64,000 nucleotides of DNA from Candidatus Babelota bacterium (GTDB taxonomy: Bacteria > Babelota > Babeliae > Babelales > Chromulinivoraceae), in the NCBI GenBank assembly GCA_026389065.1, contig JAPLIP010000036.1, positions 815-64,814 of the forward strand, in the 5' to 3' direction. Below, one piece after another: positions 3,574-58,408 of this stretch. Numbering within the stretch: the stretch's first letter is position 1; the number at the start of each line of letters is the position of its first letter. The notes under the pieces were generated by a model, which was not told the DNA's origin, made no database searches, and worked only from the letters and a program-made list of their open reading frames with translations. Both the position numbers and the translations under genes were made by a program.

Positions 3574-3751
3574 CACTTAAGGAATAAAAACAAAACATGT
3601 TATAAATTACAATTGTGCATCAAATAAATTTAACCCAAAGTATTATATTTTATTACTAATACAAAGGATAACAGATGTTCTTTATGCCGCTTTTTTATTA
3701 CTATGCCCTGCCCTCCATGCAGATTTAAGCAAAGATCTTTATTTAGATCTT

Positions 3752-4546
3752 ATGAAAAAATGTTTAATTAATTCTATATATCAAGACACTGCATATGCCA
3801 GCCAAAACCATAGCAACCCATATCAAGAAAAAGTTCGCGAAAATGGCCTTGATTGGCCAGATGCAGCACATACAATGATCGGCCTGCATAGGTTAAATAA
3901 TTTACAATTTTGTGTTGAAGATGTGCTACAAAATAATATACCTGGAGATTTAATAGAAACAGGCGTATGGAGAGGTGGTGCTAGTATATTTATGAGATCA
4001 ATTTTAAAAGCATATGAAAATACTGAAAAAAAAGTTTTCGTTGCTGATTCTTTTGAAGGAATGCCAAAGGTAAATACCGAGCTCTATCCAGATGATAAAG
4101 ATTTTGCAATTTTAACTAACTACAACAATGTTTTAGCGATTCCTTTACACCAGGTTCAATATAATTTTAGTCTTTATGGGCTGCTAGAAAGCCAAGTTGT
4201 TTTTTAAAGGGATGGTTCAAAGATACTCTTCCTAATGCGCCAATGGAAAAACTAGCGGTTATGAGACTTGATGGTGACTACTACGAATCAACAATGGATG
4301 CTCTTACTAGCCTATACCCAAAGCTATCAATTGGTGGATGATGGTGACTACTACGAATCAACAATGGATGCTCTTACTAGCCTATACCCAAAGCTATCAA
4401 TTGGTGGATGGGTAATTATTGATGATTACAATATCCCGTGTTGCGCTAAAGCAGTACATGATTTTAGAAACAAATTTAATATTACTGACGAGCTATGTAA
4501 AACAGCGGATAATATAGGCGCTTTTTGGAAGCGAACAAAAGAATAA
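3752..4546 (+). pseudogene. TylF/MycF-type (macrocin-O-methyltransferase family) sugar O-methyltransferase, disrupted by a T-run frameshift (about 4200-4207) and a 70-bp tandem duplication (4271-4410)
   Basis: Family motifs are split over frames. Frame 2 has 'LYLDLMKKCLINSIY...LIETGVWRGGASIFMR...VFVADSFEGMP'. Frame 1 has '[45 protein letters not shown]' followed by a stop. Frame 2 then has '...GGWVIIDDYNIPCCAKAVHDF'. Conserved residues ('DLSKDLYLDL') continue upstream of the 3752 ATG. Confidence 0.8.
4271..4410. repeat. Perfect direct tandem duplication, 2 x 70 bp (4271-4340 and 4341-4410)
   Basis: The string atggtgactactacgaatcaacaatggatgctcttactagcctatacccaaagctatcaattggtggatg occurs twice back to back. 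70 is not a multiple of 3. Confidence 0.97.
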
Positions 4547-4627
4547 TTTATTTCATGTAGTAAATAAAGAAATGGAATTGCTATAAAAATTAGCAATTCC
4601 ATTTCTTTTCAATTCTTATTGATTCTT

Positions 4628-5788
4628 TTACAGCTCAGGATTCTGTACTAAAAACTCTTTAACTTTTTCCAAAGATAACGGAACTGGCGCTGTCCATGGT
4701 CCATGATGAACTTCAAGACCAGGAGAATCATCGATAGCGCTATACTTTAATCCAAAAATTTCACCAACATAAAAGAATGTAGCCTCAACCATTTTTTGTG
4801 TAATTTCTATGTAATGAGTTCCTGGCTTACAAAACATAATATTTGTACTACCTGATCCCAAAAACGAAACTATTGTTTTTGCGTTATTAAATAATGAAAT
4901 TTTTTCTGCAACAGACAGCCTAGCTAATTCGTATCTTTTAAATCCAAGTGGCTCAAATAAAGCAAACACTTCATCTTCATTTGGGATTGCTCTTTTTCCA
5001 CCAGCATCTTTTCTTGAAATAAATATTTTTTCTGAACGCTCAGTATCAAGCTTTAAAGCTTCAACCCCAGCTAAAATTTTATTGTGAATATGTTTCATTA
5101 AAAAATCTACATAGTGATTTACGAGCCAAGAAGGTGGTACCTTACATCCAGATACGGACGTTGGCATAATAATAACATCTGCATGTATGCACCCAGTCGT
5201 TACCATCGGTATAATTTTTGATCTATCTATTCCCCAAAGATCTAATGATTCTTGCATAAATTTTTCATAGTAAGGAATGCACAAGTAGTCATACTCAACG
5301 CCATAAACTTCAAGCAATGCTAGCTGGCTAAGTATCTCAAAAAACCAAAGTCCATAGCAATAAGGGTACAAACGAGAAACAATTGCAACACGACCTGAAA
5401 CTTTCAAAATATTTGATGGCGCTTCTTGATCAATAAAATCTTGGTTGTTAAAAAAATTTAATCCACCCATTTGAGTTTCTTTAACAAAAGAATCGTTTAC
5501 ATAAACATATCCTGTTTTATCAAAAAGAGCTGTCCCTTGAGGAACCTCTAGAATAAACATATCAACATGCTCACCTTGCGACGGAAAATAGTTAACATGA
5601 TCCTGATACAGTGGAAACGGAGCATGATTAAAAGAATAGTTACTTGTGCATTGCACATAACTTGACTGCGGAAACTCTTTTACAAAATCTGACAATGACC
5701 TTTGATAAATCCGTGATGCTTGTAAAAATGTGCTTACAAAACAAATAAAGCTCACAAATAAAATATTACGCACAAACTTCATCAACAA
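4628..5788 (-). CDS. Glycosyltransferase family 61 / DUF563 protein (paralog 2), N-terminal signal anchor
   Basis: 'YCYGLWFFEILSQLALL' and 'KIFISRKDAGGKRAIPNEDEVFALFEPLGFKRYELARLSVAEKISLFNNAKTIVSFLGSGSTNIMFC'. Hydrophobic N-terminus 'ILFVSFICFVSTFLQA'. Confidence 0.75.
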   Translation of the reverse strand: MLMKFVRNILFVSFICFVSTFLQASRIYQRSLSDFVKEFPQSSYVQCTSNYSFNHAPFPLYQDHVNYFPSQGEHVDMFILEVPQGTALFDKTGYVYVNDSFVKETQMGGLNFFNNQDFIDQEAPSNILKVSGRVAIVSRLYPYCYGLWFFEILSQLALLEVYGVEYDYLCIPYYEKFMQESLDLWGIDRSKIIPMVTTGCIHADVIIMPTSVSGCKVPPSWLVNHYVDFLMKHIHNKILAGVEALKLDTERSEKIFISRKDAGGKRAIPNEDEVFALFEPLGFKRYELARLSVAEKISLFNNAKTIVSFLGSGSTNIMFCKPGTHYIEITQKMVEATFFYVGEIFGLKYSAIDDSPGLEVHHGPWTAPVPLSLEKVKEFLVQNPEL

Positions 5789-5883
5789 ATTCCTTTTTCA
5801 TTTAAAATAAATCTATTCATTTTTTTAATTATTTTTTGCTACAAATTAAGCCAAAGATCTTTTGTCTCTTTTTATTATTAATA

Positions 5884-7050
5884 TTATAAATCAGGGTGCT
5901 CAACTAAAAATTTTTCAATTTTGTGCAAAGGGAATGGCTCTGGAGACGCCCAGATACCACCACCATTATCTACAAAAGTAGAATCATTAATAAAGCTATA
6001 TTTTAATTTACATGTGTCAGAGACAAAGAAAAATGTAGCATCAACCATTTTTTGAGTAATCTCTACATAGTTAGTTCCAGCCTTGCAAAATAAAATATTT
6101 GCAGCTCCAGATCCAACAAATGAAATTACTGTTTTTGCATTATTAAATAGTAAAATCTGCTGAGATACCGACAAATGCTCAAGCTCATATCTAACAAAGC
6201 CATATGGCTTAAATAGTTCAAATACTTCATCTTCATTTAACACAGATCTTTTTCCCTTAGCTCCCTTACGAGAAATAAATATCTTTTCTGGAAAATTATA
6301 AGACTTTTCTGATAAAGAATTTACACCATCAATCATTTTATTTCGAACATACATCAATAAAAAATCATGATAATAATTGCAAGAGACGCGAACTCCTGGC
6401 TTATCTTGAGATATTGCTGTTGCCATTATTACAGAGTCAGCTTGTATAGTAGCACCATAAACAATTGGTACAATTTTTGATCGATCAATACCCCAAATAT
6501 CTAATGATTGCTGCATAAATTTTGTATAATAAGGAATACACAAATAATCATATTCTATATTATTAATCTCAAGAAGTGCCAGCTGACCAAGCACATCAAA
6601 TATCCAATGGCCATAGCAATATGGATATAAATGAGAAACAATGGCAACTCGACCTGGAATTTTTGTAATTCTTGAAGGGTTTTTTCTATCAACAAAATTA
6701 CTTTTATGAAAAGAGCTTAAATTTTTAATTTGAGTTTCTTTAATAAAAGAATCGTTGATGTAAACATATCCTGAAACATCAAACAACACAGAAGCCTTTG
6801 AGGCCTCTAAAAGAAAAATGTCAGCATGCTCACCTTGTGATGGAAAAAATTTAGAATCCTCTGGATACAGTGGAAAAGGAGCATGATTAAAAGAATAGTT
6901 ATTTGTACATTGCAGATAACTTGACTGCGGAAACTCTTTTACAAACTCTGACAAAGACCTTTGATAAATCCGTGATGCTTGTAAAAATGTGCTTACGAAG
7001 CAAATAAGACTTAGTATCCATGTGTTAACAATTCTTTTCACGTACTCCAA
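5884..7050 (-). CDS. Glycosyltransferase family 61 / DUF563 protein (paralog 3), close tandem duplicate of 4628-5788
   Basis: Same motifs ('YCYGHWIFDVLGQLALL', 'KIFISRKGAKGKRSVLNEDEVFELFKPYGFVRYELEHLSVSQQILLFNNAKTVISFVGSGAANILFC'). N-terminal ~55 aa are nearly identical to paralog 2. Confidence 0.75.
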   Translation of the reverse strand: MEYVKRIVNTWILSLICFVSTFLQASRIYQRSLSEFVKEFPQSSYLQCTNNYSFNHAPFPLYPEDSKFFPSQGEHADIFLLEASKASVLFDVSGYVYINDSFIKETQIKNLSSFHKSNFVDRKNPSRITKIPGRVAIVSHLYPYCYGHWIFDVLGQLALLEINNIEYDYLCIPYYTKFMQQSLDIWGIDRSKIVPIVYGATIQADSVIMATAISQDKPGVRVSCNYYHDFLLMYVRNKMIDGVNSLSEKSYNFPEKIFISRKGAKGKRSVLNEDEVFELFKPYGFVRYELEHLSVSQQILLFNNAKTVISFVGSGAANILFCKAGTNYVEITQKMVDATFFFVSDTCKLKYSFINDSTFVDNGGGIWASPEPFPLHKIEKFLVEHPDL

Positions 7051-7072
7051 CCTTTTTAGCTAAAAAATTAAC

Positions 7073-8242
7073 TTAATATGATATTTCATTTACATGTAGG
7101 GATATAAAGTTTTTAATAATATCTACTGGAACGATAGTGCTATCGGCCACGTGGCCACGACTTGTAAATTCAGTTTTTAAACCAAAATAATTACATTTCA
7201 TATCTTGTGCAAGATTGCAAAAATGAGCATCGTATAATTTTTGAAAAATTTCGATAATCATGGTATTTGGTTTGCAAAATATAATATTTGCAAGTGCTGA
7301 TCCATGAGCGCCAACAATTACGTCTGCTCCATTAAATAAAACAGCCTGTTCAAGGAGTGACATTTTACTAAGGCAGTAACGCTTAAATCCCTTTTCTTCA
7401 AACAGTACAAAAATCTCATCTTCATTTACTATTGACCTAGTAAATCCATCTTTTCTAGAAATAAAAACTTTTTTTGAAAAATTATAGTTTGTTTCAATAT
7501 TTTTCACCTCTGGTAAAAACTTAGACCTAATATTATCTGTCATCCAATATGGCCAATATGCAGTTGCTGGATACCAATCATAAACTGGATCAGTTGCACA
7601 AACATCTCTTCGTATTGCCATAGATGGAACGATCAATTCATCTGCCTGAATGCATTGATCTTCCCCTGTGCACTCTATAATTTTTTCCAATGGAATGCCA
7701 TATAACTCATATGTTTCTTTCATATATGGTGCATACTTTGGAGCAAACAGCCAATCATATTCAATCCCTGATTCTTGCAATATTATTAATCTTGGTAGCA
7801 CGTCATTAAACCAATGAGAAAAGACTTTATGTAGCGACGTTGTAATTACAGCAACCCTGCCTGATATTTTTGTCACTTTATTCAAATCTGTTTTTTTAGC
7901 TAAAAAATCATTGACCTGCGCACCAAATGGAACCAGTTGGTTAAAAAAATCTTTGACTATGTGATTATCGATTTTGATCATCCCAAAATCAGAGCAAACT
8001 ATTCCCTTTGGAATTGTCACTACAAAAGTCTCAGATAAAATTCCTTCTATCGGTTGAGCCTCATTTGTAGACGTAGAAACGGACAATTTTTCATAACAAA
8101 ACTTTAATGGATCATGGTGTTTAATATACGAAATATCTTTTCTAGATAGCATCACGTCATGAAGTGATGCAAAAGAAATGTCTTGGGCTTTTAATGAAAT
8201 AACAGATGAGAATACTGACAATAACAAAGTTATTTTTTTCAC
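7073..8242 (-). CDS. Glycosyltransferase family 61 / DUF563 protein (paralog 4), signal peptide
   Basis: 'KVFSHWFNDVLPRLIIL' and 'KVFISRKDGFTRSIVNEDEIFVLFEEKGFKRYCLSKMSLLEQAVLFNGADVIVGAHGSALANIIFC'. N-terminus 'MKKITLLLSVFSSVISLKA'. Confidence 0.75.
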   Translation of the reverse strand: MKKITLLLSVFSSVISLKAQDISFASLHDVMLSRKDISYIKHHDPLKFCYEKLSVSTSTNEAQPIEGILSETFVVTIPKGIVCSDFGMIKIDNHIVKDFFNQLVPFGAQVNDFLAKKTDLNKVTKISGRVAVITTSLHKVFSHWFNDVLPRLIILQESGIEYDWLFAPKYAPYMKETYELYGIPLEKIIECTGEDQCIQADELIVPSMAIRRDVCATDPVYDWYPATAYWPYWMTDNIRSKFLPEVKNIETNYNFSKKVFISRKDGFTRSIVNEDEIFVLFEEKGFKRYCLSKMSLLEQAVLFNGADVIVGAHGSALANIIFCKPNTMIIEIFQKLYDAHFCNLAQDMKCNYFGLKTEFTSRGHVADSTIVPVDIIKNFISLHVNEISY

Positions 8243-8407: not shown

Positions 8408-10528
8408 ATGAGTGATAAAAAACAAGAAAACCAATATGAAATCTTAGATACATTTTGCCAAAACATTACCAAGTTAGCACAGCAAGGCAAGCTTGATCCG
8501 GTTATCGGGCGCCATGAAGAAATAAGAAGAGTTATTCAAATTCTTTCACGCAGAACAAAAAGCAATCCTGTGCTCATCGGCGACCCAGGCGTTGGAAAAA
8601 CTGCAATAGTTGAAGGAATTGCGCAAAGAATAATTAATAACGATGTGCCAGAAAGTTTAAAAAATAGCGTAATTTATGCTCTAGATATGGGATCTTTAAT
8701 GGCTGGAACAAAGTTCCAAGGAGAATTCGAAGAACGCATCAAAGGAATTTTAAAAGCCATAGAAGAATCACAAGGCGGAGTGATTTTATTTATCGATGAG
8801 CTTCACATGCTTGTTGGCGCTGGATCATCTGGCGGCGGAATGGATGCTTCAAATTTACTAAAGCCTGCTCTTGCTCGCGGAAAGCTTCATTGCATTGGCG
8901 CAACAACAATTAAAGAATATAAAAAATATATTGAAAAAGATGCTGCGCTTGAACGTCGCTTCCAAAAAGTTTTAATTGATGAACCTTCAATTGAAGATGC
9001 TATTTCTATTTTGCGTGGACTAAAAGACAAATATGAACTGCACCATGGTATTAAAATCAAGGATGCTGCGCTCGTTCAGGCTGTGCAACTTTCTGCAAAA
9101 AACATACCTGATAGATTTTTACCAGATAAAGCAATTGATTTAGTTGATGAAGCTGCTTCAATGGTAAAAATGGCAATTGAATCTAAACCAGAAAAAATTG
9201 ACCAAATGGAGCGAAAAATCAGGCAGCTTGAAATTGAAAAAGTTGCCCTCGAAAAAGAAAAAGATAATAAAGCATCACAAGATCGATTAAAAGATTTAAG
9301 CCAAGAACTATCAGATCTTAAAAAAGAACATAAATTACTTTTAGATCAATGGAAGTCTGAAAGAGAGCCCCTAGAAAAAATCAATACCATAAAAGAGCAA
9401 ATCGAGATTGCAACTTATGAATTTATGCAGGCTGAGCGCGTTGGAAACTTTGCTCGAGCATCAGAATTAAAATATGGAAAAATTGTACAGCTAGAAAAAG
9501 AACTCCAAAGCCAATATCAAAAAATACAAAATAACGGCTCACACATGCTCAAAGAAGAAGTAAACGAAGAAGATATTGCAAAAGTTTTATCACGCCTGAC
9601 TGGAATTCCTGTTGAAAAATTACAGGCAAGTGAGTCAAAAAAACTTCTTGAAATGGAAGACACTTTAAAGCAGCGAGTAATTGGTCAAGATGGAGCTCTA
9701 AAAAAGATTGCTCACGCAATTCAGGTACATCGCGCAGGACTTACCGACCCACACAAACCGATTGGATCGTTTTTATTTCTCGGGCCAACAGGCGTTGGAA
9801 AAACAGAAATAGCAAAAAGCTTAGCTGACTATTTATTTAACGATGAGCACAAACTTATCCGCATAGATATGTCTGAGTATATGGAAAAACATTCTGTCTC
9901 TCGACTCATCGGGTCACCTCCTGGATATGTTGGACATGAGGAAGGTGGGCAGCTTACAGAAGCAGTGAGACGAAGCCCTTACAGCATTATACTTTTTGAT
10001 GAAATTGAAAAAGCGCATCCAGAAGTTTTTAATATTTTTTTACAAATCCTTGATGATGGCAGACTGACAGATGGCCAAGGCAGAACCATTAATTTTAAAA
10101 ACTGCGTTATTATCATGACATCAAATATTGGATCTGATTTAATTTTACAATCAAAAACTGTTGATGAAAAAGTACAAAAGGAAATAGAAAAACAACTGCA
10201 TAAAATATTTAGACCCGAATTTTTAAATAGAATTGATGACATTGTTTTCTTTAACATGCTTGATCAAAAAGTTATTAGCAATATTGCAAAATCTCACCTT
10301 CAAGCATTTAAGCAACGCTTGTTAGATCGTGGAATTCAAGCATCATTTTCTGAAAAAGCCCTTGAGTTTGTAGCCGAGCATGGATTTGAGCAAGAGTTTG
10401 GAGCTCGACCACTAAAACGAGCTATTCACCAATACATCGTTGTACCCGCTTCACAATATGTACTCGAACATCCAAGCGTCAAAGAAATGAATTTTGACCT
10501 ACACGGTGATAAAATAATTATCAATTAA
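8408..10528 (+). CDS. clpB: ClpB-type AAA+ disaggregase lacking the canonical N-terminal domain
   Basis: Two AAA modules ('[13 protein letters not shown]', '[15 protein letters not shown]'), a long coiled-coil middle domain and '[10 protein letters not shown]'-like '[13 protein letters not shown]'. Likely start is ATG 8408, preceded by agagaggaaaaa. The motif '[19 protein letters not shown]' lies only ~30 aa from that start. Confidence 0.9.
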
Positions 10529-11223
10529 CTTTTTTCAACAAGGCTTTGTTTTTCTATGTGTGCATCAAAGCCTTGTTGAATTTTTCTTACGCATGAGATA
10601 ACTGACATTTTGCCCGTGTTTACGCAGCAATCATACTGACTTAAAACAGAGGCTATAAAAACCTTTGTACGATTGCCTGAAAAAAAATCTTTTTTAATTT
10701 TATTTAGAGCTCTTTTGTTAGAAGTAGCATTTTCTAAATCAGATTTACGCAACACATCGATAGACTCTTTTTCGCTTAGAGTAGTTCTAAATTTGTTGTA
10801 ATACATAGCAAGCACGCTTTTTACTTTTCTGTGATCACGATCATTTGTCCCCTTATTGCGCTTAGCAACATGGTCTATTAAAGCAACTGGTGGACAATAA
10901 GTTATAACTACAAACTCTTGAGCCTTCGATTTATCAAACACAAATTGTGGTGAAATGGTATCAACAATAACATTGTATCCACTGTCTATATCCTTACTAA
11001 TTTGCCTCCACATGGCCAAATTTGTTGGAGATACTCCACGCGACTGAGAAAAATCAAACATATCAATGCCTACGACCTTCCACTTACCTGGCAAAGCCTT
11101 GCACAATTCACGAGAAACGGATGATTTCCCAGCAGACGAACCACCATATAAAATTATTAATGAACTCTTGGCAAAAATCGTGCCAACATGAAAGACAAAT
11201 AATAAAAACATGCTTTTTTTCAT
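10525..11223 (-). CDS. Chloramphenicol-phosphotransferase-like (CPT family) P-loop kinase with N-terminal signal peptide
   Basis: 'SLIILYGGSSAGKSSVSREL' matches the CPT-family P-loop 'IILNGGSSAGKS'. N-terminus is 'MKKSMFLLFVFHVGTIFA'. The stop shares a TTAA with the convergent clpB stop. Confidence 0.55.
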   Translation of the reverse strand: MKKSMFLLFVFHVGTIFAKSSLIILYGGSSAGKSSVSRELCKALPGKWKVVGIDMFDFSQSRGVSPTNLAMWRQISKDIDSGYNVIVDTISPQFVFDKSKAQEFVVITYCPPVALIDHVAKRNKGTNDRDHRKVKSVLAMYYNKFRTTLSEKESIDVLRKSDLENATSNKRALNKIKKDFFSGNRTKVFIASVLSQYDCCVNTGKMSVISCVRKIQQGFDAHIEKQSLVEKS

Positions 11224-13199: not shown

Positions 13200-15119
13200 T
13201 TACCAATTGTAAGTCATACCAACGTCAAGAATATATGCAGGGCTATTTCCTGTTGGAACGCCACCAATTAAAGTTCCACACATATCCGTATAATGTTGCC
13301 CAGGAAAGAAAAGTCCAAAATACGAATAGATATTAAATTCTTTATATATATCAGCTGAAAGTTTTGTTGTAACCTCAATCCCAAGCGAATTACTTGATGG
13401 CTGAAGCAATGCTGGAACTACAACAGCTCCAGAAAGAGGAGACAGCACCGCAGGCTTAACTACAAAGTTAGACACATCTGGCGACCAATATCCAATTACG
13501 TTTGGAGAAATTTTTACTTTATGATCACTCCAATTTTGAGGACTCCAATCAACAGCTCCACCAAAAAATATAATATTTGTAACTTCATCAATACTATCAG
13601 ATTGAAGAACGTGATTAAGGTTTTGATTTATAGTAATGGCGCTTGGATTTTTAACGTTAAAACGAGGAATCCCTTTGTTAAAAACAACAAGCTGAGTTAA
13701 GCGCTTACCAGAATAAACAGACTGCACAGGAATAAACCCTGTAAACTGTTGATTCATAAGTTGATCCGTTGTCAAAAGATTTGTATTAAGCTGTGGCCCA
13801 ATATATCCAGATGCGTATCCAGCACCAAGCGTAGCTACTAAGACTTTTTCGATGCATTCATACGAAGCATCACCCATTAAGAAAAACCCAGAAAGATTAA
13901 ATTGCTGTGCTGGTCTAAATCTATCAAATGCATTCCATAGCCCAGGAGCGATTTCCATTCCATTAAAGCTTGAGCCTTTACGAGAGCCTTTTACCGCAGC
14001 ACTGTTTGTTGATGTTACATAAGCAGACGTTGGGTTTTTTGTAATTGCAGGATCTTGTGTATAAATTTTTGTATACTGCTCTGAAATTGCACCAGTGGAA
14101 AGATTGTTTGCTAACTTTATTAAATTTCTATCCCACGGCTTAAGGCCTTGGCTTCCCTGGTTAAGAGCTCCTTCAAGCCCCCAGTTAAGTCGACCCTTTA
14201 CGCCCTCAATTGCACAACCATAGGTCGTTAACAAAGACTCCGCGTCTATTAAAAACTCAAGAGCTTGATCAGGACCCCGTAAGAAAACAATATATGGCTC
14301 AACAGACAATTTTTCTTTTGCTCCGTCAAGTAGCTTAACCATACTGCGCATCGCTGAAACATATGACTGGCCAGGCAATCCTCTTGCCAGGCATCCAGCC
14401 TCCAAGTCACCCTGTCTGACAGGCGCGCTATTGCTTCTGTATCCAAGCGTGTAATTTTGAAGAATTGCGGTATAAAAATCAACAACAAATCTTTCTGCTA
14501 TGGGATTTAAGCTTAGGCGCACAGCTGGAGCAAACTGATCAATAGAGTCTCCAGGAGAGAATCCCAAAAATCCACGGACTACATATGCAGCTCCAAGACT
14601 AATTCCACGACCAACCTCAAAAGGAATCAATCCAACCTGTAAATAGTTATCGTTTGGATAATCTAAATTTCCAAGAGCCATTTTTACCCAAGCTTCACGA
14701 GACCAAATTAAATGCTTGTCTGCAGACTTTCCCTTAACAGGAACAGGCACATCAACAACCATTGCCACAGAATCACCAACCTTAGCATCTGTTTCAAATC
14801 CCCATTTGTGACGAACCCGAAATGTTTCATGAAATAAAAGCCTAGGCTGCTCAACAGATCCGTGTAAGGCATCGATAGTAAAGTCAATTGTTGACCTTTC
14901 GTATGATGTGCAATCCCAAGGAATAGCGTTATTTAAAAATTGAGTGTTTTGAGCTCCAAAATATTCTTGAGTATATCTGCCCATACAACTAGCTGAAAAA
15001 TCATCTGTCTTATAAACCAAGCCCTTTGATAATTTTTGAGTAAATGGACTTAAATAACTAACGAAAAAAAATGATAAAATCAAAGACTTTATCGACAGAT
15101 GCAGAGTTGGGAATTTCAT
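13200..15119 (-). CDS. Putative outer-membrane beta-barrel protein (lineage-specific)
   Basis: Signal-peptide-like N-terminus, Gly/Ser/Asn/aromatic-rich alternating composition, and a C-terminal aromatic end '...VGMTYNW' typical of OMP barrels. No family recognised. Confidence 0.45.
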   Translation of the reverse strand: MKFPTLHLSIKSLILSFFFVSYLSPFTQKLSKGLVYKTDDFSASCMGRYTQEYFGAQNTQFLNNAIPWDCTSYERSTIDFTIDALHGSVEQPRLLFHETFRVRHKWGFETDAKVGDSVAMVVDVPVPVKGKSADKHLIWSREAWVKMALGNLDYPNDNYLQVGLIPFEVGRGISLGAAYVVRGFLGFSPGDSIDQFAPAVRLSLNPIAERFVVDFYTAILQNYTLGYRSNSAPVRQGDLEAGCLARGLPGQSYVSAMRSMVKLLDGAKEKLSVEPYIVFLRGPDQALEFLIDAESLLTTYGCAIEGVKGRLNWGLEGALNQGSQGLKPWDRNLIKLANNLSTGAISEQYTKIYTQDPAITKNPTSAYVTSTNSAAVKGSRKGSSFNGMEIAPGLWNAFDRFRPAQQFNLSGFFLMGDASYECIEKVLVATLGAGYASGYIGPQLNTNLLTTDQLMNQQFTGFIPVQSVYSGKRLTQLVVFNKGIPRFNVKNPSAITINQNLNHVLQSDSIDEVTNIIFFGGAVDWSPQNWSDHKVKISPNVIGYWSPDVSNFVVKPAVLSPLSGAVVVPALLQPSSNSLGIEVTTKLSADIYKEFNIYSYFGLFFPGQHYTDMCGTLIGGVPTGNSPAYILDVGMTYNW

Positions 15120-25330: not shown

Positions 25331-25845
25331 ATGAAAATTGCTGCAGCGGTTATTTTTTTACTGTTTTCCTCTCAAGTCTTTTCGCAAGAAAACCTAAGGG
25401 TTGATTTTACTGCGAGGGGGAAACGAAAAAAGCTTTTTAAAATAAATTTCTTTCATGGTGATAGTTCTGTTGGGTTTTTGTTTGTTTATAAAATCCATGG
25501 TTCTAGGGCATATGTTTTTTATAGTTTATATATCTACACAGAGCATAGAAACAATGGTTATGGCGAGTTTTTTTAAATCATTCGTGTGATTATATCAAAA
25601 GCCTTGGAGCCAAAAAAGTTTATATTCAGCCTGGCTCTTTTGAGATAGTTGATAATAGAATTTGCAAGCCAGACGATGAAACTAAAAAAAATAACGACAA
25701 AAAGCTTTTAAGATTTTATAAAAGATGTGGTTTTAAAATTGCTGGAAAAGCAGCAAGGAAGATCGCGAGCATGGTTTATTCATTTATGAAAATAGATGAA
25801 AATGCCGATTTTTTAATGGTAAACAATCTTAGAGCAAGTCTTTGA
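25331..25845 (+). pseudogene. GNAT-family N-acetyltransferase with signal-like N-terminus, split by a -1 frameshift in a T7 run (25568-25574)
   Basis: Frame 2 ends '...YIYTEHRNNGYGEFF' at TAA 25574-25576. Frame 1 continues from 25573 as 'LNHSCDYIKSLGAKKVYIQPG...KKLLRFYKRCGFKIAGK...' to TGA 25843-25845. Together these give GNAT motif A (R..G.G) and motif B (FY.k.GF). Confidence 0.7.
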
Positions 25846-25917
25846 AAAAATGTCATTTTTTGCTATGTTGAACGTACGATTAAATCGATTGTTTTTAAAT
25901 TAAAAAGGAGTTTGAGT

Positions 25918-26064
25918 ATGAAAAATGTTATTAAAGTTTTTGGGCTATTATTTTTGTTGAGTTTTCTTGGAGGGTGCGCTTCTATTACTAGTGATGGTAC
26001 TGCTGTGTCGAATAATCAGCAAAAAAATGATCGCTCAAATCTCCCGGACGCGCCACAACCTTAA
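25918..26064 (+). CDS. Small lipoprotein (48 aa), not in the supplied ORF track
   Basis: aaaggag RBS 8 nt upstream of ATG 25918. 'MKNVIKVFGLLFLLSFLGGCASI...' has a lipobox L-G-G-C. Stop TAA at 26062-26064. Confidence 0.55.
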   Translation: MKNVIKVFGLLFLLSFLGGCASITSDGTAVSNNQQKNDRSNLPDAPQP

Positions 26065-26231: not shown

Positions 26232-26453
26232 ATGAAAAAATTCATGAGTATACTTGCTGCATTTGCTTTGTTAACAGTTGTAACTGGCTGTAAAAAATCT
26301 AAAAAAGATGAAAACAAGCCTGTTAAAAAAGAACATATGAAAAAAGATCATATGAAAAAAGATGACAAAAAAAAATCAATGAAAAAAGATCATGCAAAAA
26401 AAGATATGCATTCTAAAAAATCACATGATTCAAAGAAAAAATCATCTTACTAA
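26232..26453 (+). CDS. Small Lys/His-rich lipoprotein (73 aa)
   Basis: Lipobox 'LLTVVTGC' followed by repetitive 'KKDHMKKD...KKDHAKKDMHSKKSHDSKKK'. A terminator follows. Confidence 0.6.
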   Translation: MKKFMSILAAFALLTVVTGCKKSKKDENKPVKKEHMKKDHMKKDDKKKSMKKDHAKKDMHSKKSHDSKKKSSY

Positions 26454-26480: not shown

Positions 26481-26515
26481 AAAAAAGGGCGCTTGTTTAA
26501 AGCGCCCTTTTTTTT
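26481..26515. terminator. Bidirectional rho-independent terminator between convergent genes
   Basis: A6-gggcgct-tgttta-agcgccc-T8. Confidence 0.8.
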
Positions 26516-26531
26516 GATAAAAAGTCTATTT

Positions 26532-27665
26532 CTAGCAGCAGCAACCGCCAGATTTTATTTTTTTTGGTTTAATTGGTATCGACTGAATTGGAGCTATTGG
26601 GGTTATTTCTTGGGAAATATCAATGACTGGCGTTGCGCGCTTTGAGTGCTCTTGCGCTATTTGATTAACTGCTGACTGTGCTTGATTAAGGGCTGTGGTC
26701 AGTTGGCCGGACAGTAGGGAGGTGGACAGTGATGGCACTGGTGATGAATTGATTGAAAGGGATGCGGCGCGTGGTTGTTGAGTCTCTGCTAAAATTCGTA
26801 AAGCTTCATAGGTGGAAACAGATGCCTTATTTGCGCTGTCAATGTGTTGACTTTGTAAAATAAAACCTTCTTGGGTTTGCATAGCGAGCCTTCGGTGAGA
26901 TTTGTCGGCTTTGGTTATCTTTTCTAGCAGTGTGTTGAAGATGTGATCTGTTGCTACTTGGTAAGCTTGAAAGTCTTCAGATAGTTTTTCTACTTGCTGA
27001 GCAAAATCTCTATTTTGATTTTCTAGCTTATATCTACAAGAAGCATGCACCATTCTGTTTATTTTGTATGCAATTGCTGATAGTGCGATAAGTGCAGTAG
27101 CGCTTGAAACGCCAGCATATAAAAGTTGCGCAGATCCTATTGCTGCACTTTCCATTCCAGGAATAAATCTTTTTTGTGGCTGAAAAAAATTATGAGCATT
27201 AAGAATTACACCGGATTGTTTGTAGGTTGCATAACAAGCTCCTGCTGCTGCGCTAGATATTAAGGAAATCTCTACGCAATCTAGAAGCCTTAGTTGATTT
27301 AGGGTTGGTTTTTCTTGTTTGATAAATGGGCTAGTTGGATAGTTTTTGTTTTTTACATGAGCTTTAAGTAGTTTTTTTTGGCAGGATGGTGACATTGCCA
27401 TTGTGCAGCTAAGCTCTGATTTGTCTAGTTCGTTATTTAATGAACTAATTGTGAGTTCATTAAGCTCTGGCGAAAGGTCTATTTGAAAAGCTCTTTTGCT
27501 TTCTTCTCTTCGAGGGCTTAAGCAGAAAGGGCTTGGTATAAAATCAGGACTTATATCGCCTTGAGCATAAGCTTTTCTGCCCTCTCTTGAAGAATCGGAG
27601 CCGTTTAAAAAAGCTGCTAGATTAAAGATTGATATAAGGAAAGAGCATAGAATAAGTTTTTTCAT
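26532..27665 (-). CDS. Lineage-specific secreted/membrane protein ending in polybasic-GGCCC
   Basis: Signal peptide 'MKKLILCSFLISIFNLAAF'. Two hydrophobic segments ('ISLISSAAAGACYATY', 'AAIGSAQLLYAGVSSATALIALSAIAY'), a helical/coiled region and a Ser/Pro-rich tail. C-terminus is 'PIKPKKIKSGGCCC' followed by TAG. Confidence 0.6.
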   Translation of the reverse strand: MKKLILCSFLISIFNLAAFLNGSDSSREGRKAYAQGDISPDFIPSPFCLSPRREESKRAFQIDLSPELNELTISSLNNELDKSELSCTMAMSPSCQKKLLKAHVKNKNYPTSPFIKQEKPTLNQLRLLDCVEISLISSAAAGACYATYKQSGVILNAHNFFQPQKRFIPGMESAAIGSAQLLYAGVSSATALIALSAIAYKINRMVHASCRYKLENQNRDFAQQVEKLSEDFQAYQVATDHIFNTLLEKITKADKSHRRLAMQTQEGFILQSQHIDSANKASVSTYEALRILAETQQPRAASLSINSSPVPSLSTSLLSGQLTTALNQAQSAVNQIAQEHSKRATPVIDISQEITPIAPIQSIPIKPKKIKSGGCCC

Positions 27666-27793: not shown

Positions 27794-28204
27794 ATGAACA
27801 ACATGAATCAAGATTTGTACAAACAAGACTTAATTGATCACTCTAAAAACCCTAGAAATTACGGTATTTTAGATGGAGCAGATTTTTTTTCAGATGAACA
27901 CAACCCCTCCTGTGGCGACAGTGTTAAAATCTGTGGAATTATTGAAAATGGTAAAATAGTAGAAATGAGATTTGAGGGATCTGGATGCGTTTTAAGCATG
28001 GCCATGGCTTCAAAGCTTACAGAATTTGTCGTTGGAATGGATTTGCATGAAGTAGCGAAGCTCGATGAAGAGCTTGTTGAAAAATTGCTTGGAACAAGGC
28101 TTGGCTTAAATCGATTACGATGCGGACTTTTGTCTGTCATGGCTCTGACCAAGGGAGCAAGTCAATACTTGGAAAAAAATAGGTCTAGTGCTTCAGCTCT
28201 TTAA
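27794..28204 (+). CDS. sufU: SufU-type Fe-S cluster assembly scaffold/sulfur acceptor (solitary)
   Basis: 'LYKQDLIDHSKNPRNYG', 'HNPSCGDSVKI', 'GSGCVLSMAMASKLTE', 'RLRCGLLSVMAL': three conserved Cys in SufU-like context. Confidence 0.75.
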   Translation: MNNMNQDLYKQDLIDHSKNPRNYGILDGADFFSDEHNPSCGDSVKICGIIENGKIVEMRFEGSGCVLSMAMASKLTEFVVGMDLHEVAKLDEELVEKLLGTRLGLNRLRCGLLSVMALTKGASQYLEKNRSSASAL

Positions 28205-28341
28205 CTCTTAAAAAAAGCCCTTGTTTAGGCTCAAAATTTGAAAATTTAGATAAAATCTGATATCTTTACAAAGACTTAATAATCTTATTTTTAATAACAT
28301 TTTGCAATTTTTAGGAAGATAAAAATTGTGTCGAAAAAAAT

Positions 28342-30210
28342 ATGTCAAAAGAGCGTATAAAACCAATTCAGTTTGCGAAAGCCTACATTGTTCCTTCATC
28401 GGACGATATGGTTCTTTCTGCAGAGCAAAAACAGTCAATGATCGACCTGTTTGAAAGTGAAGTTAGTAAATATAATTCTGGTCAATTGGTAACCGGAAAA
28501 ATTATATTAATTGATTCAAACGGTGTGCTTGTTGATATCAAATACAAATCAAACGGTATCATTCCTTTGTATGAATTTTCAGAACAAGAAATGAGAGAAA
28601 TTGCTGTTGGCAAAGATCTCGAAGTTATCATCGACGAACTTGAAAACGTTAATGGTGATGTTGTTCTTTCTTATGAAAATGCAAAAACAGTTCGCGCTTG
28701 GGATAGAATTACCAAGTTGTTCGAAGAAGGAAAACCGGTTGAGGGTGTGGTCACTCACAAAGTTAAAGGTGGACTTAGTGTTGATGTTGGCGTTCCGGCG
28801 TTCTTGCCTGGATCACAAGTTGACTTATACCGCGTTACTGATTTTGACAATTTTGTTGGTAAAACAATTATTGCTGAGATCGTTAAACTTAACAAAAAAC
28901 GTGGCAACATTATCATCTCATGCAGAAAATACCTTTCTGAGTGTCGTGATAAATCTCGTAAACAAATTCTTGATACTATCGAAGTTGATAAAGTTATCAT
29001 GGGTACTGTGAAAAATATCACAAACTATGGTGTATTTATTGATGTTGGTGGAGTTGATGGATTGTTGCACATTACTGATATGACATGGGGCAGAATTTCT
29101 CATCCAAGTGAATTGGTGAAAATTGGCGAAAATGTTACGGTAAAAGTTCTTTCTATTGATAAAGATAACAGCAAAATTTCTCTAGGAATGAAACAACTTG
29201 GCGACAACCCTTGGCAAGATATTGACAAGATGATTCAAGTTGGCTCAATCATCAAAGGACACGTTGCAAGCATTGCTGATTACGGTCTATTTGTTGAAAT
29301 TCGCAGAGGCGTTGAAGGATTGGTACACATTTCAGAAATTTCATGGACTGATCGTATTTCAAACTTGAAAGACAGATTTAAAGTTGGTGAAGAAATTGAA
29401 GTGCTTGTAGCATCTTTAGATATTGAAAACAGAAGAATGTCTTTGAGTATCAAACAGTTGTCAAAAGATCCTTGGACAACAATCAAAGAAAATTACAAAA
29501 AAGAAGATCGCATTAAAGGTAAAATTACCAATATTGCTGATTTCGGTATTTTTGTTCAAATTATTCCAGGCGTTGACGGATTGGTTCACGTTTCAGATTT
29601 ATCATGGACTGAGCATATTGCACATCCAAGTGATCTATATAAACAAGGCCAAGAAGTTGAAGCGGTCATCCTTTCAGTTGATGAAGATCACAAAAAAGTT
29701 GCTCTTGGTATCAAACAACTTTCACTTGATCCTTGGAAATCAATTGAAAAAGATATGCCTATTGGATCAAGAGTTATGGGCACAGTAACCAAAATTGGTA
29801 ACTACGGTGCATTTGTCAAACTTTCAAATAAAGTTGAAGGATTGATCTATAATTCTGATTTAGAGCAACGCAAAGAAAGCCCTGTTGAAGTTGGTCAAAC
29901 TTATGAGCTTCGTGTTGTTAACATCAACGCTGGTGAGCGTAAGATTGGTTTAAGCTTGAAGCTTGAAGAAACAAAAGAAGAGCAACAGCATCATCAAGCA
30001 CCTGCTCCAAAACAACAGCAACAACAGCAACAACAGCCTAAGAAAAAAGCGCCAAAAGTAGAAGAAGACGACTATGTCGATCAAAAAGCTTCTATGGCGC
30101 CTCGTATGAAATCTTCGTTGCAAATCGAGCTTGAAAAGCATGCAGCTCGTCAACAAGATGAATCATACGGTGAAGAAAAAGAAAACAAAAAGAAAAAATC
30201 AAGAAAATAA
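28342..30210 (+). CDS. rpsA: 30S ribosomal protein S1 with a low-complexity Q/K/E-rich C-terminal extension
   Basis: Six S1 repeats (e.g. 'GTVKNITNYGVFIDVGGVDGLLHITDMTW', 'GHVASIADYGLFVEI..VEGLVHISEISW'). Tail is 'QQHHQAPAPKQQQQQQQQPKKKAPK...KENKKKKSRK'. Confidence 0.93.
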   Translation: MSKERIKPIQFAKAYIVPSSDDMVLSAEQKQSMIDLFESEVSKYNSGQLVTGKIILIDSNGVLVDIKYKSNGIIPLYEFSEQEMREIAVGKDLEVIIDELENVNGDVVLSYENAKTVRAWDRITKLFEEGKPVEGVVTHKVKGGLSVDVGVPAFLPGSQVDLYRVTDFDNFVGKTIIAEIVKLNKKRGNIIISCRKYLSECRDKSRKQILDTIEVDKVIMGTVKNITNYGVFIDVGGVDGLLHITDMTWGRISHPSELVKIGENVTVKVLSIDKDNSKISLGMKQLGDNPWQDIDKMIQVGSIIKGHVASIADYGLFVEIRRGVEGLVHISEISWTDRISNLKDRFKVGEEIEVLVASLDIENRRMSLSIKQLSKDPWTTIKENYKKEDRIKGKITNIADFGIFVQIIPGVDGLVHVSDLSWTEHIAHPSDLYKQGQEVEAVILSVDEDHKKVALGIKQLSLDPWKSIEKDMPIGSRVMGTVTKIGNYGAFVKLSNKVEGLIYNSDLEQRKESPVEVGQTYELRVVNINAGERKIGLSLKLEETKEEQQHHQAPAPKQQQQQQQQPKKKAPKVEEDDYVDQKASMAPRMKSSLQIELEKHAARQQDESYGEEKENKKKKSRK

Positions 30211-30227: not shown

Positions 30228-30635
30228 ATGGAACAAACATTTGCGATTATTAAGCCTCATGCGGTTGCAGAAAACAATAGCGGTAAAATCATTGATATGA
30301 TTGAAGCGGCTGGTTTTAAAATTGTGCGTCTTGATAAAATTACAATGACTAAAGCGCAAGCTGATGACTTGTATGTTGAGCACAAAGAAAGATCTTTTTA
30401 CAACGGTATGGTAGCAACAATGACATCATCTCCAGTGATTGTTATGAAACTACAAAAAGACGGCGCTGTTTTAGCATGGCGTGATTTGATGGGTGCAACA
30501 AACCCAGCAAGCGCACAGGCTGGCACAGTTCGTGCTTTGTTTGGCAAAAGCTTAGATGAAAATGCAGCTCACGGTTCAGACTCTTTAACGAGTGCTGCAC
30601 GTGAACTGAAAATATTTTTTGGTGGTTGCTGTTAG
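30228..30635 (+). CDS. ndk: Nucleoside-diphosphate kinase ending in GGCC
   Basis: 'EQTFAIIKPHAV', 'YVEHKERSFY', 'GATNP', 'NAAHGSDS' (catalytic His). C-terminus is 'RELKIFFGGCC' followed by TAG. Confidence 0.93.
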   Translation: MEQTFAIIKPHAVAENNSGKIIDMIEAAGFKIVRLDKITMTKAQADDLYVEHKERSFYNGMVATMTSSPVIVMKLQKDGAVLAWRDLMGATNPASAQAGTVRALFGKSLDENAAHGSDSLTSAARELKIFFGGCC

Positions 30636-30662
30636 GCAATTACTTATAAAGTGATTTCAAAG

Positions 30663-30695
30663 AAAAGGGTGCTATCTTAGCACCCTTTTCTTTTT
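30663..30695. terminator. Rho-independent terminator after ndk
   Basis: aaaa-gggtgcta-tct-tagcaccc-ttttcttttt. Confidence 0.75.
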
Positions 30696-33897: not shown

Positions 33898-33939
33898 AAT
33901 TAGCATGAATCTTTTTTAGATTTTTTGAGTTAAAATACT

Positions 33940-33977
33940 AAAGAGGCATGAGTCAGATAGACTCATGCCTCTTTTTG
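33940..33977 (+). terminator. Rho-independent terminator after the parA operon
   Basis: 12-bp perfect stem agaggcatgagt (33942-33953) / actcatgcctct (33961-33972) followed by tttt. Confidence 0.8.
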
Positions 33978-34017
33978 TTAAAGCTGATCAGGTCTTTATT
34001 TTGATTGAAAATAAAGA

Positions 34018-34221
34018 TTATTTTTTTGAATCAGAAAGATATGTAAAACGAAGCCATATCCATACTGGAATTAAATAATACAGCGGATTTAAATTTAGCC
34101 AAAAAGAATACCAACCTATTTGAGCATTTCTTATTGTTGGACAATTCCAAAGAAACAATACAAATGCACTAATAGCCAAAAATGCAACAAGGGTAGATGT
34201 TTTTTCAGAGTAGTTATTCAT
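34018..34221 (-). CDS. Possible small two-TM membrane protein translationally coupled to nusB (8-nt overlap)
   Basis: ATG 34221 lies inside the nusB stop region (GACTATGAATAA). 'TSTLVAFLAISAFVLFLW' and 'LYYLIPVWIWLRF' are hydrophobic. No homology recognised. Confidence 0.3.
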   Translation of the reverse strand: MNNYSEKTSTLVAFLAISAFVLFLWNCPTIRNAQIGWYSFWLNLNPLYYLIPVWIWLRFTYLSDSKK

Positions 34222-36711: not shown

Positions 36712-37500
36712 ATGATTCGATTAAAAAAAATCAGTATTTGTTTTGGTGTTTTTGGGCTTTTTTTTATTTTTATTAGCAAAAATCAAGTTAACCGAGCTGT
36801 GCCTTGCAAAGCTTTGGATGCTCAAGAGCCTGGGCTTATCAGTGAAATGTTAAATGATGTTGAAATGGGTTTTGATTGCAGTGATGATACAATTGAAAAT
36901 CAAAAGGACCATAAAGTGTACGCAAGTGAAAGACAAAAGCGTGATTTCTTTAAATCAATTGGCTGTCAGTATATTAATTTTATGGATATAAAGTGTGCAC
37001 CGTCTGAGCTACCTGATCCAAAAGATTCTGCGCATTATAAATCTGATAGCAAAAACATTTTAGAGCTATCTGAAAAATATCGAAATGACATACAAAATAA
37101 AAAGCTAGCTTCTATGTATATTTCGCTTATTTCAAAAAAAGTTGGGCATGGTATTTTTGCGACAATGTTTATAAAGTCAGGCGATTTTATTGGTACATAT
37201 GCTGGCGAAGTGTGCTCAGGACAAGCGCTTGAAGATACTGAGTTTGCTTGGGATTATGGAGCAATGGTACCGAGCGGGGATCGGTTAATCCTTGACGGGA
37301 AATACCGCGGTAATGAGCTACGATTTATAAATCATGCAAAAGATCCAAACACAAGGGCGGTTTATTTGATTGCTGATGGCAAGTTGCATGTGTGTTACAT
37401 AGCGCAAAAAGATATTGCTGCAGGTCAGCAGCTTACGGTAAGCTATGGAGATGATTATTGGACAACGCGTAATGTGCAGCCAGAAAGTTTTCAGGACTAG
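36712..37500 (+). CDS. SET-domain (lysine methyltransferase-like) protein with N-terminal signal/anchor
   Basis: 'GHGIFATMFIKSGDFIGTYAGEV', 'NELRFINHAKDPN' (NH motif), 'LTVSYGDDYW' (ELxF/YDY-like). N-terminus 'ISICFGVFGLFFIFISK'. Confidence 0.75.
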   Translation: MIRLKKISICFGVFGLFFIFISKNQVNRAVPCKALDAQEPGLISEMLNDVEMGFDCSDDTIENQKDHKVYASERQKRDFFKSIGCQYINFMDIKCAPSELPDPKDSAHYKSDSKNILELSEKYRNDIQNKKLASMYISLISKKVGHGIFATMFIKSGDFIGTYAGEVCSGQALEDTEFAWDYGAMVPSGDRLILDGKYRGNELRFINHAKDPNTRAVYLIADGKLHVCYIAQKDIAAGQQLTVSYGDDYWTTRNVQPESFQD

Positions 37501-56384: not shown

Positions 56385-57860
<1,476 letters not shown>

Positions 57861-57898
57861 TTATAGCAAGGTAAGGAAAAAGCAGTTATTTGTAAAGT

Positions 57899-58408
57899 TT
57901 AATAACCTCTACGGTTGCGGTTGTACTGTTCTTTCTCAAGAAACAAAAGAGACCTGTTTAATTTTTCTGCTTGTATATGCTTAACTTTGTCTTCAATTTG
58001 TTGACTACTTAAGCCTTCCACTTCTGGCTGGCTAAAAGATTCTAGTATGTTAATTATGCTTTTGTTTTTAATTTTGACAATGTCTGGAGTGCTGGGAGCT
58101 TGTATGTGGTCATGCATTTCTCTAAGCATTACTTCTAATTTTGTTAAGCCTTCTATTCCTTCATTTTCATTAATAGGCGGGGTTGTATCTAAGCTTGTAA
58201 GCTCTAGCTCACATTCAGATACAAATTTCGCACAAGATAAAAGTATCTTTTCTTGTTGTCTTTGAAAAGTGCTTATTCTTGAAGCCTCTGTTGTTTCTTT
58301 ACACCACTTCTCTATTATTGCTGAGACTTCCTGGGCATTCATTCCAAGAGCAGGCGCTGATGCAAAATTAATGAGCGATGCGATAACTAAGAATTTACTT
58401 TTTTTCAT
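57899..58408 (-). CDS. Hypothetical secreted protein
   Basis: Signal peptide 'MKKSKFLVIASLINFASAPALG'. No family recognised. Confidence 0.5.
   Translation of the reverse strand: MKKSKFLVIASLINFASAPALGMNAQEVSAIIEKWCKETTEASRISTFQRQQEKILLSCAKFVSECELELTSLDTTPPINENEGIEGLTKLEVMLREMHDHIQAPSTPDIVKIKNKSIINILESFSQPEVEGLSSQQIEDKVKHIQAEKLNRSLLFLEKEQYNRNRRGY

Follow-up and report, generated by a model that had tools for sequence, protein, structure and literature searches.

Lineage-restricted cysteine tails on nucleoside-diphosphate kinase and an unrelated protein of Dependentiae as candidate mimics of eukaryotic membrane-anchoring signals

Why does a housekeeping enzyme of a bacterium end in the same four residues as the eukaryotic GTPases Rab1/Ypt1? 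The question is raised by a stretch of 64,000 nucleotides from Candidatus Babelota bacterium (contig JAPLIP010000036.1, positions 815 to 64,814 of the forward strand; the whole stretch is called the window below), in which the gene for nucleoside-diphosphate kinase (ndk, plus strand, 30228-30635) closes with the codons ggt ggt tgc tgt tag (30621-30635) and its product, Ndk, terminates in Gly-Gly-Cys-Cys. An unrelated open reading frame (ORF) on the minus strand at 26532-27665, here named X, ends in -SGGCCC. An earlier note on this DNA had drawn attention to both termini, which the codons confirm, and had proposed that a short host-lipidation or membrane-targeting tag is appended to exported proteins in this lineage. 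From the sequence comparisons described here, the Cys tails of Ndk and X are lineage-restricted and kept by selection rather than by chance. It is quite possible, and is the reading to which we tentatively incline, that they are eukaryote-type membrane-anchoring signals whose terminal cysteines would be lipidated by host enzymes.

The ndk gene runs from an ATG at 30228 to a TAG at 30633-30635 and encodes a canonical enzyme of 135 amino acids according to its reading frame, Pfam, NCBIfam and an AlphaFold2 (AF2) model. The Pfam model NDK (PF00334) matches residues 2-132 with 162.4 bits (cutoff 27) and the NCBIfam equivalog NF001908 matches with 162.9 bits (cutoff 155), and the catalytic His motif NxxHGSD, invariant in the Ndk alignment, is intact as NAAHGSDS. 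The nearest solved bacterial structure is that of E. coli Ndk (2HUR, E = 7e-38), and the AF2 model has a predicted local distance difference test (pLDDT) score of 94.6. The C-terminus reads ...AARELKIFFGGCC, with RELKIFFGGCC as the last residues. In the model, the last helix (residues 120-131) stops at the conserved Phe-Phe pair, and the four codons of the Gly-Gly-Cys-Cys tail (30621-30632, plus strand), which start right after this pair, form a low-confidence coil outside the fold; the tail is predicted to be an exposed, unstructured appendage. An intrinsic-terminator-like hairpin with a 16-bp stem and a T-run lies 3′ of ndk (30659-30693, plus strand), where there is no read-through frame. 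A terminator-like hairpin also lies 3′ of X (26481-26514, minus strand: GGGCGC, a 9-nt loop, GCGCCC and a T-run); it was read directly in the sequence, having been passed over by the terminator scan, which allowed loops of at most 8 nt. Because terminators stand directly 3′ of both genes, a DNA-level repeat or read-through was rejected as the origin of the tails.

The residues that follow the core-ending Phe-Phe were compared among the 120 nearest homologs of the window Ndk. A CC pair occurs there in 25 of the 120, and at least two tail cysteines in 26. The forms with CC are GGCC (13 times), GECC (twice), GACC, GSCC, SSCCI and KCCSSK, together with the longer tails PQKMKSCC, PRKNRSCCAH, KSESCCSDKC, GGCCGTC, ...EGCCGTC and ...DCCGTC, while other Ndks stop at Phe-Phe or continue with GN, GS, PNL, PGL and similar residues. 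The CC-tailed proteins reach down to 62% identity, with the pair kept across the range of 62-98%, and they fall into at least three clades of the Ndk tree. In a tree of the neighbouring 600-residue S1 protein, for which the sample was partly picked for CC-tailed Ndk, the tail is found in nearly all sampled lineages and is lost in the clade of loci L003 and L004. Since the codons for Cys (TGC TGT, TGC TGC or TGT TGT), Gly (GGT or GGC) and Phe (TTT or TTC) and the stop codon (TAG, or TAA in L001, L088 and L083) all vary among the orthologs, the Ndk tail is conserved as protein and not as DNA. The Lys in RELKIFF is present in 15 of the 26 Ndks with a multi-Cys tail vs 1 of the 94 without, although these counts are not phylogenetically independent. 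A GTDB scan with Ndk returned four Dependentiae loci, and the other 76 loci, mostly from Proteobacteria, were taken as controls; the Ndks recovered from them have at most one tail Cys and never a pair. The statement in the earlier note that bacterial Ndks normally lack a Cys pair is therefore borne out by the controls, most of which have one Cys, and the alignment of orthologs shows a lineage-restricted tail with protein-level conservation.

The second carrier, X, is a Dependentiae-specific protein of 377 amino acids (26532-27665, minus strand), characterised by homolog searches, hydropathy and an AF2 model. Its end codons on the minus strand are tct ggc ggt tgc tgc tgc tag, and the polybasic and Cys-cluster tail with which the protein ends, KPKKIKSGGCCC (26535-26570, minus strand), is kept in the homologs P0122 to P0125. 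A Sec-type signal peptide is predicted for residues 1-23 (27597-27665, minus strand) from a hydropathy of 2.0 over these residues and a conserved MKK-hydrophobic pattern. The only strongly conserved block of the X family is a hydrophobic core at residues 129-202 (27060-27281, minus strand), and the hydropathy profile has one clear segment of transmembrane length, residues 180-200, besides a weaker one. X has no match in Pfam or NCBIfam, and its AF2 model, a long helix with a disordered basic tail, has a pLDDT of 47.9, too poor for a fold search. Compared with the counterpart in a close relative (L174), X is 56% identical and the fastest-evolving gene of the block, whereas, of the 15 other genes common to both genomes, 13 lie at 82-99% identity and two do not, namely a short Lys-rich ORF (81%) and what is left of a truncated GNAT gene. 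Just the hydrophobic core and the tail of X are well kept in this comparison; divergence combined with a kept core and tail is a pattern expected of a host-interface protein, as far as sequence can suggest it.

The coincidence of two such ends in one window could be estimated directly. The 50 window ORFs of at least 100 amino acids contain just 5 CC/CCC sites (CCC scored as one site), in five proteins, and two of these sites are at the extreme C-terminus; none of the other ~48 ORFs of this size has two or more Cys in its last six residues. With a Cys content of ~1.5%, the expected number of window proteins ending in CC is ~0.01, and the two seen correspond to a ~1e-4 event. The earlier note had argued against coincidence on different grounds, namely a TAG stop and a GGT-TGC-TGY codon context common to both genes. 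This argument was rejected, since orthologs show synonymous variants and TAA stops and TGC is the commoner Cys codon in the window (147 TGC vs 113 TGT).

The tail is also widespread among the relatives of X. A word-indexed search found one homolog (P0122), and a full HMMER search over 1.8 billion representatives found three more; the remaining counterparts were assigned by conserved position and are not all demonstrably homologous (for example L091, or L092 and L176, which lack Cys). All four sequence homologs end in a basic stretch followed by a Cys cluster (KKPKKIKSTGGCFCC; PPKIKQNSCCCQ; RPKTKHDSCCDCQ; KIKPRGNCCC). Among the 11 positional counterparts, a Cys cluster ends eight: SKKSCGGCCVLQ (L001, with CGGCCVLQ), NSKCGGCCCTQ (L002), KYKRRCCDMC (L003), AKCCGICKQQ (L004), EKTCCPCC (L083), KSSGCCIVS (L086), KPKGCWPCRR (L088) and KTGCGC (L094). 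A basic stretch with a Cys cluster thus ends 13 of 16 X family members or positional counterparts, and Lys and Arg make up 35% of the eight residues preceding the cluster. Two of the orthologs carry canonical CaaX boxes, CIVS (L086) and CVLQ (L001), each with an extra upstream Cys, an arrangement familiar from the hypervariable regions of Ras and Rho. A Cys exactly at -4 followed by aaX is absent from the window proteins, which have their cysteines at -2/-1 (Ndk) and at -3 to -1 (X). Two of the three Cys-less counterparts have polybasic/aromatic ends instead, PRKKKPWWKF (L092) and FNMLYGKKNK (L176, C. destructans-like), and such replacement tails point to membrane binding as the putative common function. 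The Cys cluster alone is conserved among the X orthologs and GG is not, for which reason a ubiquitin-like 'RGG-C' precursor or a double-glycine peptidase site was dropped as an explanation. In L089, which is from the same species as L088, a group II intron-type reverse transcriptase (RVT_1 + GIIM, 3871-5202) is inserted just downstream of X, and X (5747-7330) ends there in ...KGCWPCS vs ...KGCWPCRR in L088 (5696-7330).

Two further carriers were found in the genome Ga0207050/Ga0206820, an ORFan of 193 amino acids ending in ...KVRTRGGCCC (L101) and one of 179 amino acids ending in ...CPDCCCMM (L088). These proteins are unrelated, both have an N-terminal Sec-type signal peptide, and neither they nor X match any sorting-signal or other family of Pfam or NCBIfam. 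Together with Ndk and X, this genome has four tailed proteins in the ~40 kb seen. The 193-residue protein has no similarity to its positional counterpart in the window (10525-11223). For counting, an ORF was scored as tailed if two or more of its last six residues were Cys; by this measure, 16 of 229 ORFs in the ndk-centred Dependentiae loci are tailed vs 8 of 1292 (0.62%) in the controls (Fisher p = 1e-8), in a test biased by loci that were partly chosen for a CC-tailed Ndk, and by orthology.

What the tails might do has to be considered in relation to the organism. The window Ndk agrees over its whole sequence (100% identity) with P0001, a protein from a Candidatus Dependentiae metagenome-assembled genome, and the Ndk matches that have a named source are mostly labelled Dependentiae, TM6, Babeliales or Chromulinivorax. 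All Dependentiae isolates described so far live as parasites inside protist cells and import ATP, and they encode very many proteins with Sec signals, including putative effectors, and shed outer-membrane vesicles, as seen in Chromulinavorax (PMC6561590). Going by its phylum, the window organism is presumably a parasite as well (PMC6561590). In such a setting, Ndk and X would reach the host cytosol, which for Ndk is an assumption, and host enzymes would lipidate the terminal cysteines of their tails. For Ndk, with its FF-x2-CC arrangement, the likeliest modification would be dual S-acylation (palmitoylation) by a host DHHC acyltransferase. In X and its relatives, one would expect S-acylation, alone or combined with CaaX prenylation, at a Cys cluster behind a polybasic stretch, because the orthologous tails alternate between -CCC, -CXC and CC-aaX in that context. 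The CaaX-type ends CIVS and CVLQ in X orthologs make it reasonable to read the tails as mimics of host lipidation signals. The fit, by analogy, rests on the extreme C-terminal site, the lack of structure, the polybasic context, the interchange of tail forms, and carriers that are leaderless as well as Sec-exported; in these respects the tails resemble the two-signal ends by which eukaryotic Ras, Rho, Rab and CK1 proteins are anchored to membranes. Tethered to a membrane, Ndk could produce GTP or ATP on the spot or target small GTPases of the host at the parasite compartment, and the helix-ending Phe-Phe may have pre-adapted the enzyme, four extra codons being sufficient to give FFGGCC.

The closest eukaryotic parallel to the Ndk tail is found in Yck1/Yck2 and CK1-gamma, which, like Ndk, are soluble enzymes without a hydrophobic segment that have a -GCC end and Phe-Phe just upstream. 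The terminal CC of Yck2 is dually palmitoylated by the ankyrin-repeat DHHC enzyme Akr1, the peptide KGFFSKLGCC needs its Phe-Phe, and the variant KGAAFFLGCC, with FF-x2-CC spacing, is fully functional (PMC3145546). Ndk has a terminal CC with Phe-Phe 2-4 residues upstream (IFFGGCC), and its FF-GG-CC spacing equals that of the functional FF-LG-CC variant. As Yck2 is the one well-studied non-Rab protein with a -CC end and is palmitoylated and not prenylated (PMC3145546, PMC2173492), S-acylation of Ndk would be more plausible by analogy than Rab-type geranylgeranylation, the headline analogy of the earlier note. The Yck2 signal is, however, tripartite and includes a disordered C-terminal region of 42 residues and the kinase domain, whereas Ndk has neither and offers just four residues outside its fold; unlike Yck2, the bacterial Ndk would also first need to reach the host cytosol.

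Bacterial precedents point in the same direction. Host prenylation and S-acylation of Legionella and Salmonella effectors, to which the earlier note had appealed, are well established (PMC4951486). Short Cys motifs at the extreme C-terminus, as here, are found in the Legionella CaaX proteins (AnkB, PelA-J), in the palmitoylated Legionella effectors LpdA and GobX and in Salmonella SifA (CLCCFL, prenylated and S-acylated). Like host-lipidated effectors, the X family is fast-evolving and without a known family, includes CaaX ends with an extra Cys (GCCIVS, CGGCCVLQ), and belongs to a phylum whose studied members are intracellular parasites. The Legionella and Salmonella effectors differ in being delivered by type III or IV systems and in having lipidation demonstrated by experiment, whereas the present carriers are known from sequence and have Sec peptides or, in the case of Ndk, none. 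Mimicry of host lipidation by intracellular bacteria is already known, and what is new here is the phylum, Dependentiae, and the carrier, a housekeeping enzyme being an unusual one. As the earlier note had also pointed out, Ndk can be a secreted factor with effects on host small GTPases: mycobacterial Ndk is secreted and acts on Rab5, Rab7 and Rac1 (PMC2808246, PMC3715411). The secreted Ndks of M. tuberculosis, P. aeruginosa and Porphyromonas are leaderless and proposed to act on host GTPases or nucleotides (PMC2808246, PMC3715411); however, no C-terminal Cys pair or lipid anchor has been reported for them, and export of the Dependentiae Ndk is assumed. Searches of open-access papers found none that connects palmitoylation, prenylation or CaaX motifs with Dependentiae or the genera cultured from it.

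A more elaborate and more doubtful version of host lipidation is that many Dependentiae release Ndk and that an ankyrin-repeat DHHC enzyme of the host fixes it to membranes by mimicry of Yck2/CK1-gamma, together with a few rapidly evolving exported proteins that have Ras/Rho-like polybasic-Cys/CaaX tails, supplying or draining GTP or ATP where parasite and host meet. Equally speculative is the role that Ndk would then have, either feeding the nucleotide importers of the parasite or disabling Rab or dynamin GTPases. If the Yck2 mimicry were true, no lipid-anchored Ndk would have been described before, nor any mimicry of host lipidation in Dependentiae. For these widespread and almost uncultured energy parasites, a conserved Cys tail of 4 to 12 residues nominates Ndk, the X family and a few ORFans as candidate host-targeted proteins and predicts both the place (membranes) and the route (host lipidation) of the carriers. 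If true, lipidation mimicry would extend beyond the Proteobacteria, and a core metabolic enzyme would have become a membrane-tethered effector through four codons.

A number of observations weigh against host lipidation, and several of them would suit thiols that serve the bacterium itself, by metal or Fe-S binding, by a redox or intersubunit disulfide or by envelope crosslinking, with no part for host enzymes; we regard this explanation as unlikely, though far from negligible. No N-terminal signal peptide is present in Ndk, and an N-terminal extension is precluded because an in-frame stop lies two codons upstream of the ATG. No specialised secretion system beyond Sec and outer-membrane vesicles has been reported for Dependentiae (PMC6561590). 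The 10-residue Yck2 peptide alone is insufficient for palmitoylation (PMC3145546), and the Phe-Phe of Ndk is, in the model, the buried end of a folded helix, unlike the disordered tail of Yck2. X could also be an inner-membrane protein of the bacterium whose tail faces the bacterial cytoplasm, one transmembrane segment followed by basic residues being a plausible arrangement. The use of the tail on Ndk and on X is uncorrelated across genomes, with a tail on X only in L003 and L004 and on Ndk only in L092; in L176, whose Ndk is identical to that of C. destructans, neither Ndk nor the protein at the X position is tailed. Single-Cys tails are found in nine further Dependentiae Ndks among the 120 homologs, and most control Ndks end in FFxxxE[LIV]C[PAS]R[TI]R (e.g. 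FFxxxE[LIV]CPRTR), with a conserved single Cys at -5. The proteobacterial tail thus also follows Phe-Phe and also has a conserved Cys, but this Cys is never paired or terminal and the tail is of 10-11 residues vs 4 in the window Ndk. Having some Cys in the tail is an old and common trait of bacterial Ndk, and the CC tail may be an elaboration of this older, Ndk-intrinsic residue. We know of no established role of the single Cys at -5; if the thiols serve the bacterium, an unrecognised role of a widely conserved C-terminal Cys of bacterial Ndk would be implied. Vicinal Cys pairs at the C-terminus serve in metal binding or redox chemistry in MerA, insect thioredoxin reductase and the tail of SlyD, and in every locus X lies head-to-head with nifU/iscU, the gene for an Fe-S scaffold. 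However, the cluster never lies outside the last 1-6 residues, which is needless for a metal site, and is preceded by stretches rich in Lys and Arg; its spacing is very variable (CC, CCC, CFCC, CGC, CWPC, CCPCC), unlike a defined chelating site; orthologs exchange it for CaaX boxes or polybasic/aromatic tails; and the carriers would occupy different bacterial compartments, Ndk being leaderless and the others having signal peptides. A further point against host lipidation as the earlier note had framed it is the frequency of tails outside the X-ndk block. When the Dependentiae-specific outer-membrane protein (OMP)-like protein at 13200-15119 was used as a probe to obtain an unbiased sample (78 metagenome loci, 934 kb, excluding that block), 4 of 691 Dependentiae ORFs were tailed (0.58%), the same as the controls, and one of the four was convincing (L101, RGGCCC). 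A proteome-wide tag was accordingly rejected, and the tag is, judging from these sequences, real but confined to a handful of families. What stands of the host-lipidation tag is its restriction to the lineage, its selection, its presence on unrelated proteins and the CaaX ends in X orthologs, but not its use as a general tag on exported proteins (0.58% vs 0.62%).

The tail may instead be a C-terminal sorting or secretion signal for a bacterial machine, leading to export or to covalent attachment to the envelope or to vesicles, with any lipidation being bacterial. This appears rather improbable. The recurrence of a GGCC(C) core in Ndk (FFGGCC), X (SGGCCC or CGGCC) and the 193-residue protein (RGGCCC) is in its favour, as are the need of the leaderless Ndk for an exit route and the outer-membrane vesicles seen in Chromulinavorax; in P. 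aeruginosa, Ndk needs a C-terminal motif to be secreted. However, X orthologs conserve the Cys cluster but not GG, the sorting-signal models of Pfam and NCBIfam give no match, and we know of no candidate processing enzyme. Known bacterial sorting signals (LPXTG, PEP-CTERM, GlyGly-CTERM and the C-terminal domain of the type IX secretion system) are far longer and contain a transmembrane helix or a folded domain. Double geranylgeranylation of -GGCC by the host Rab geranylgeranyltransferase (RabGGTase), as in Rab1/Ypt1, is very unlikely, even if the termini agree as the earlier note had claimed: Ypt1 ends in GGGCC (PDB 1UKV_Y), its last four residues are identical to those of Ndk, and both proteins have a terminal -CC motif. 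Taken together, the tail forms seen on Ndk and X (-CC, -CXC, -CCX, -CCXX and -CCXXX) also mirror the C-terminal classes of Rab proteins. RabGGTase recognises the Rab fold via Rab escort protein (REP) and not the terminal peptide. The Rab analogy is mechanistically weak because the enzyme needs REP bound to this fold, whereas X is helical and Ndk has a ferredoxin-like NDK fold and no GTPase domain, which leaves it without the REP recognition surface of Rab1/Ypt1; in Yck2, moreover, a -CC end outside the Rab family is palmitoylated instead. Least probable of all, to the point that we give it almost no weight, is coincidence or neutral drift, by which the tails would be meaningless short extensions with chance cysteines. 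Ndk tails after Phe-Phe are variable in general (GN, GS, PNL, PGL or none) and the unbiased sample lacks a general enrichment, as drift would allow. Against it, two -CC ends are seen in the window where ~0.01 are expected, CC is kept across 62-98% identity with synonymous changes, the tail is kept on the fastest-diverging protein of the block, and the tailed ORFs of ndk-centred loci (16/229 vs 8/1292, p = 1e-8, with the bias from the choice of loci) exceed those of the controls.

The block that contains both carriers has a conserved organisation. A NifU/IscU-like gene (27794-28204) and the gene for ribosomal protein S1 (28342-30210), both assigned by Pfam, lie on the plus strand between X and ndk (27794-30210). 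The order M16 peptidase, small ORFs, X on the opposite strand, NifU/IscU, S1 and ndk is found in every Dependentiae locus fetched, and it continues past ndk with ..., ParA, NusB, EF-P, SHMT and a SET-domain protein. The X-NifU-S1-ndk order and a Dependentiae-type Ndk are also present in L002 (DATIJN010000109.1), which is labelled Saccharimonadales. This contig and the contigs of P0098/P0153, labelled Epsilonproteobacteria, have a Dependentiae-type Ndk and the Dependentiae-specific OMP family, and their labels are probably binning or annotation errors. Two small ORFs of the window (25912-26064 and 26232-26453, plus strand) have lipoprotein-like signal peptides (...LGGC and ...VTGC), the second being a Lys-rich repeat (KKDHMKKD...), and in other Dependentiae loci the M16 peptidase and X are likewise separated by ORFs of similar size and position. 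A nearby ORF (25331-25576, plus strand) matches about half of an intact GNAT acetyltransferase of 171 amino acids in L174 (11846-12361) and looks truncated or decaying. L174 also has a HEPN/nucleotidyltransferase pair of toxin-antitoxin-like type (2983-3745) between NusB and a 99-residue ORF downstream of ParA, which the window lacks at the corresponding site (33900-34214).

The SET/PR-domain protein (36712-37500, plus strand), a eukaryote-like lysine methyltransferase without a Cys tail, occupies the same position in most Dependentiae loci examined (L083 18070-18762, L088 17609-18298, and L091 18068-18775 and 18871-20064, where it is duplicated), and is a likely host-chromatin effector. The protein used above as a probe (639 amino acids, 13200-15119, minus strand) has a signal peptide, an aromatic C-terminus (...MTYNW) and no Pfam family. 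Its family is Dependentiae-specific, with 66 homologs, 188 metagenome matches and tandem copies in P0132/P0133, L099 and L101, and it is probably a major outer-membrane protein of the phylum. Four paralogous GT61-like glycosyltransferases with 31-60% mutual identity lie at 1215-2360 (plus strand) and at 4628-5788, 5884-7050 and 7073-8242 (minus strand); ORFs of similar size at 3-1166 and 2353-3573 have no similarity to them. The Pfam family Glyco_transf_61 is mainly eukaryotic. Towards the other end of the window (56385-60340), an F1-beta-like protein of the ATP-synthase alpha/beta family (56385-57824) and a short epsilon-like ORF adjoin a HerA/DUF87 ATPase, and a protein at 58598-60340 weakly matches NCA2, the regulator of mitochondrial ATP synthase; L081 (8778-10465) was noted along with this region. 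From these sequences, the region is apparently an odd, partial ATP-synthase-related cluster in an energy parasite.

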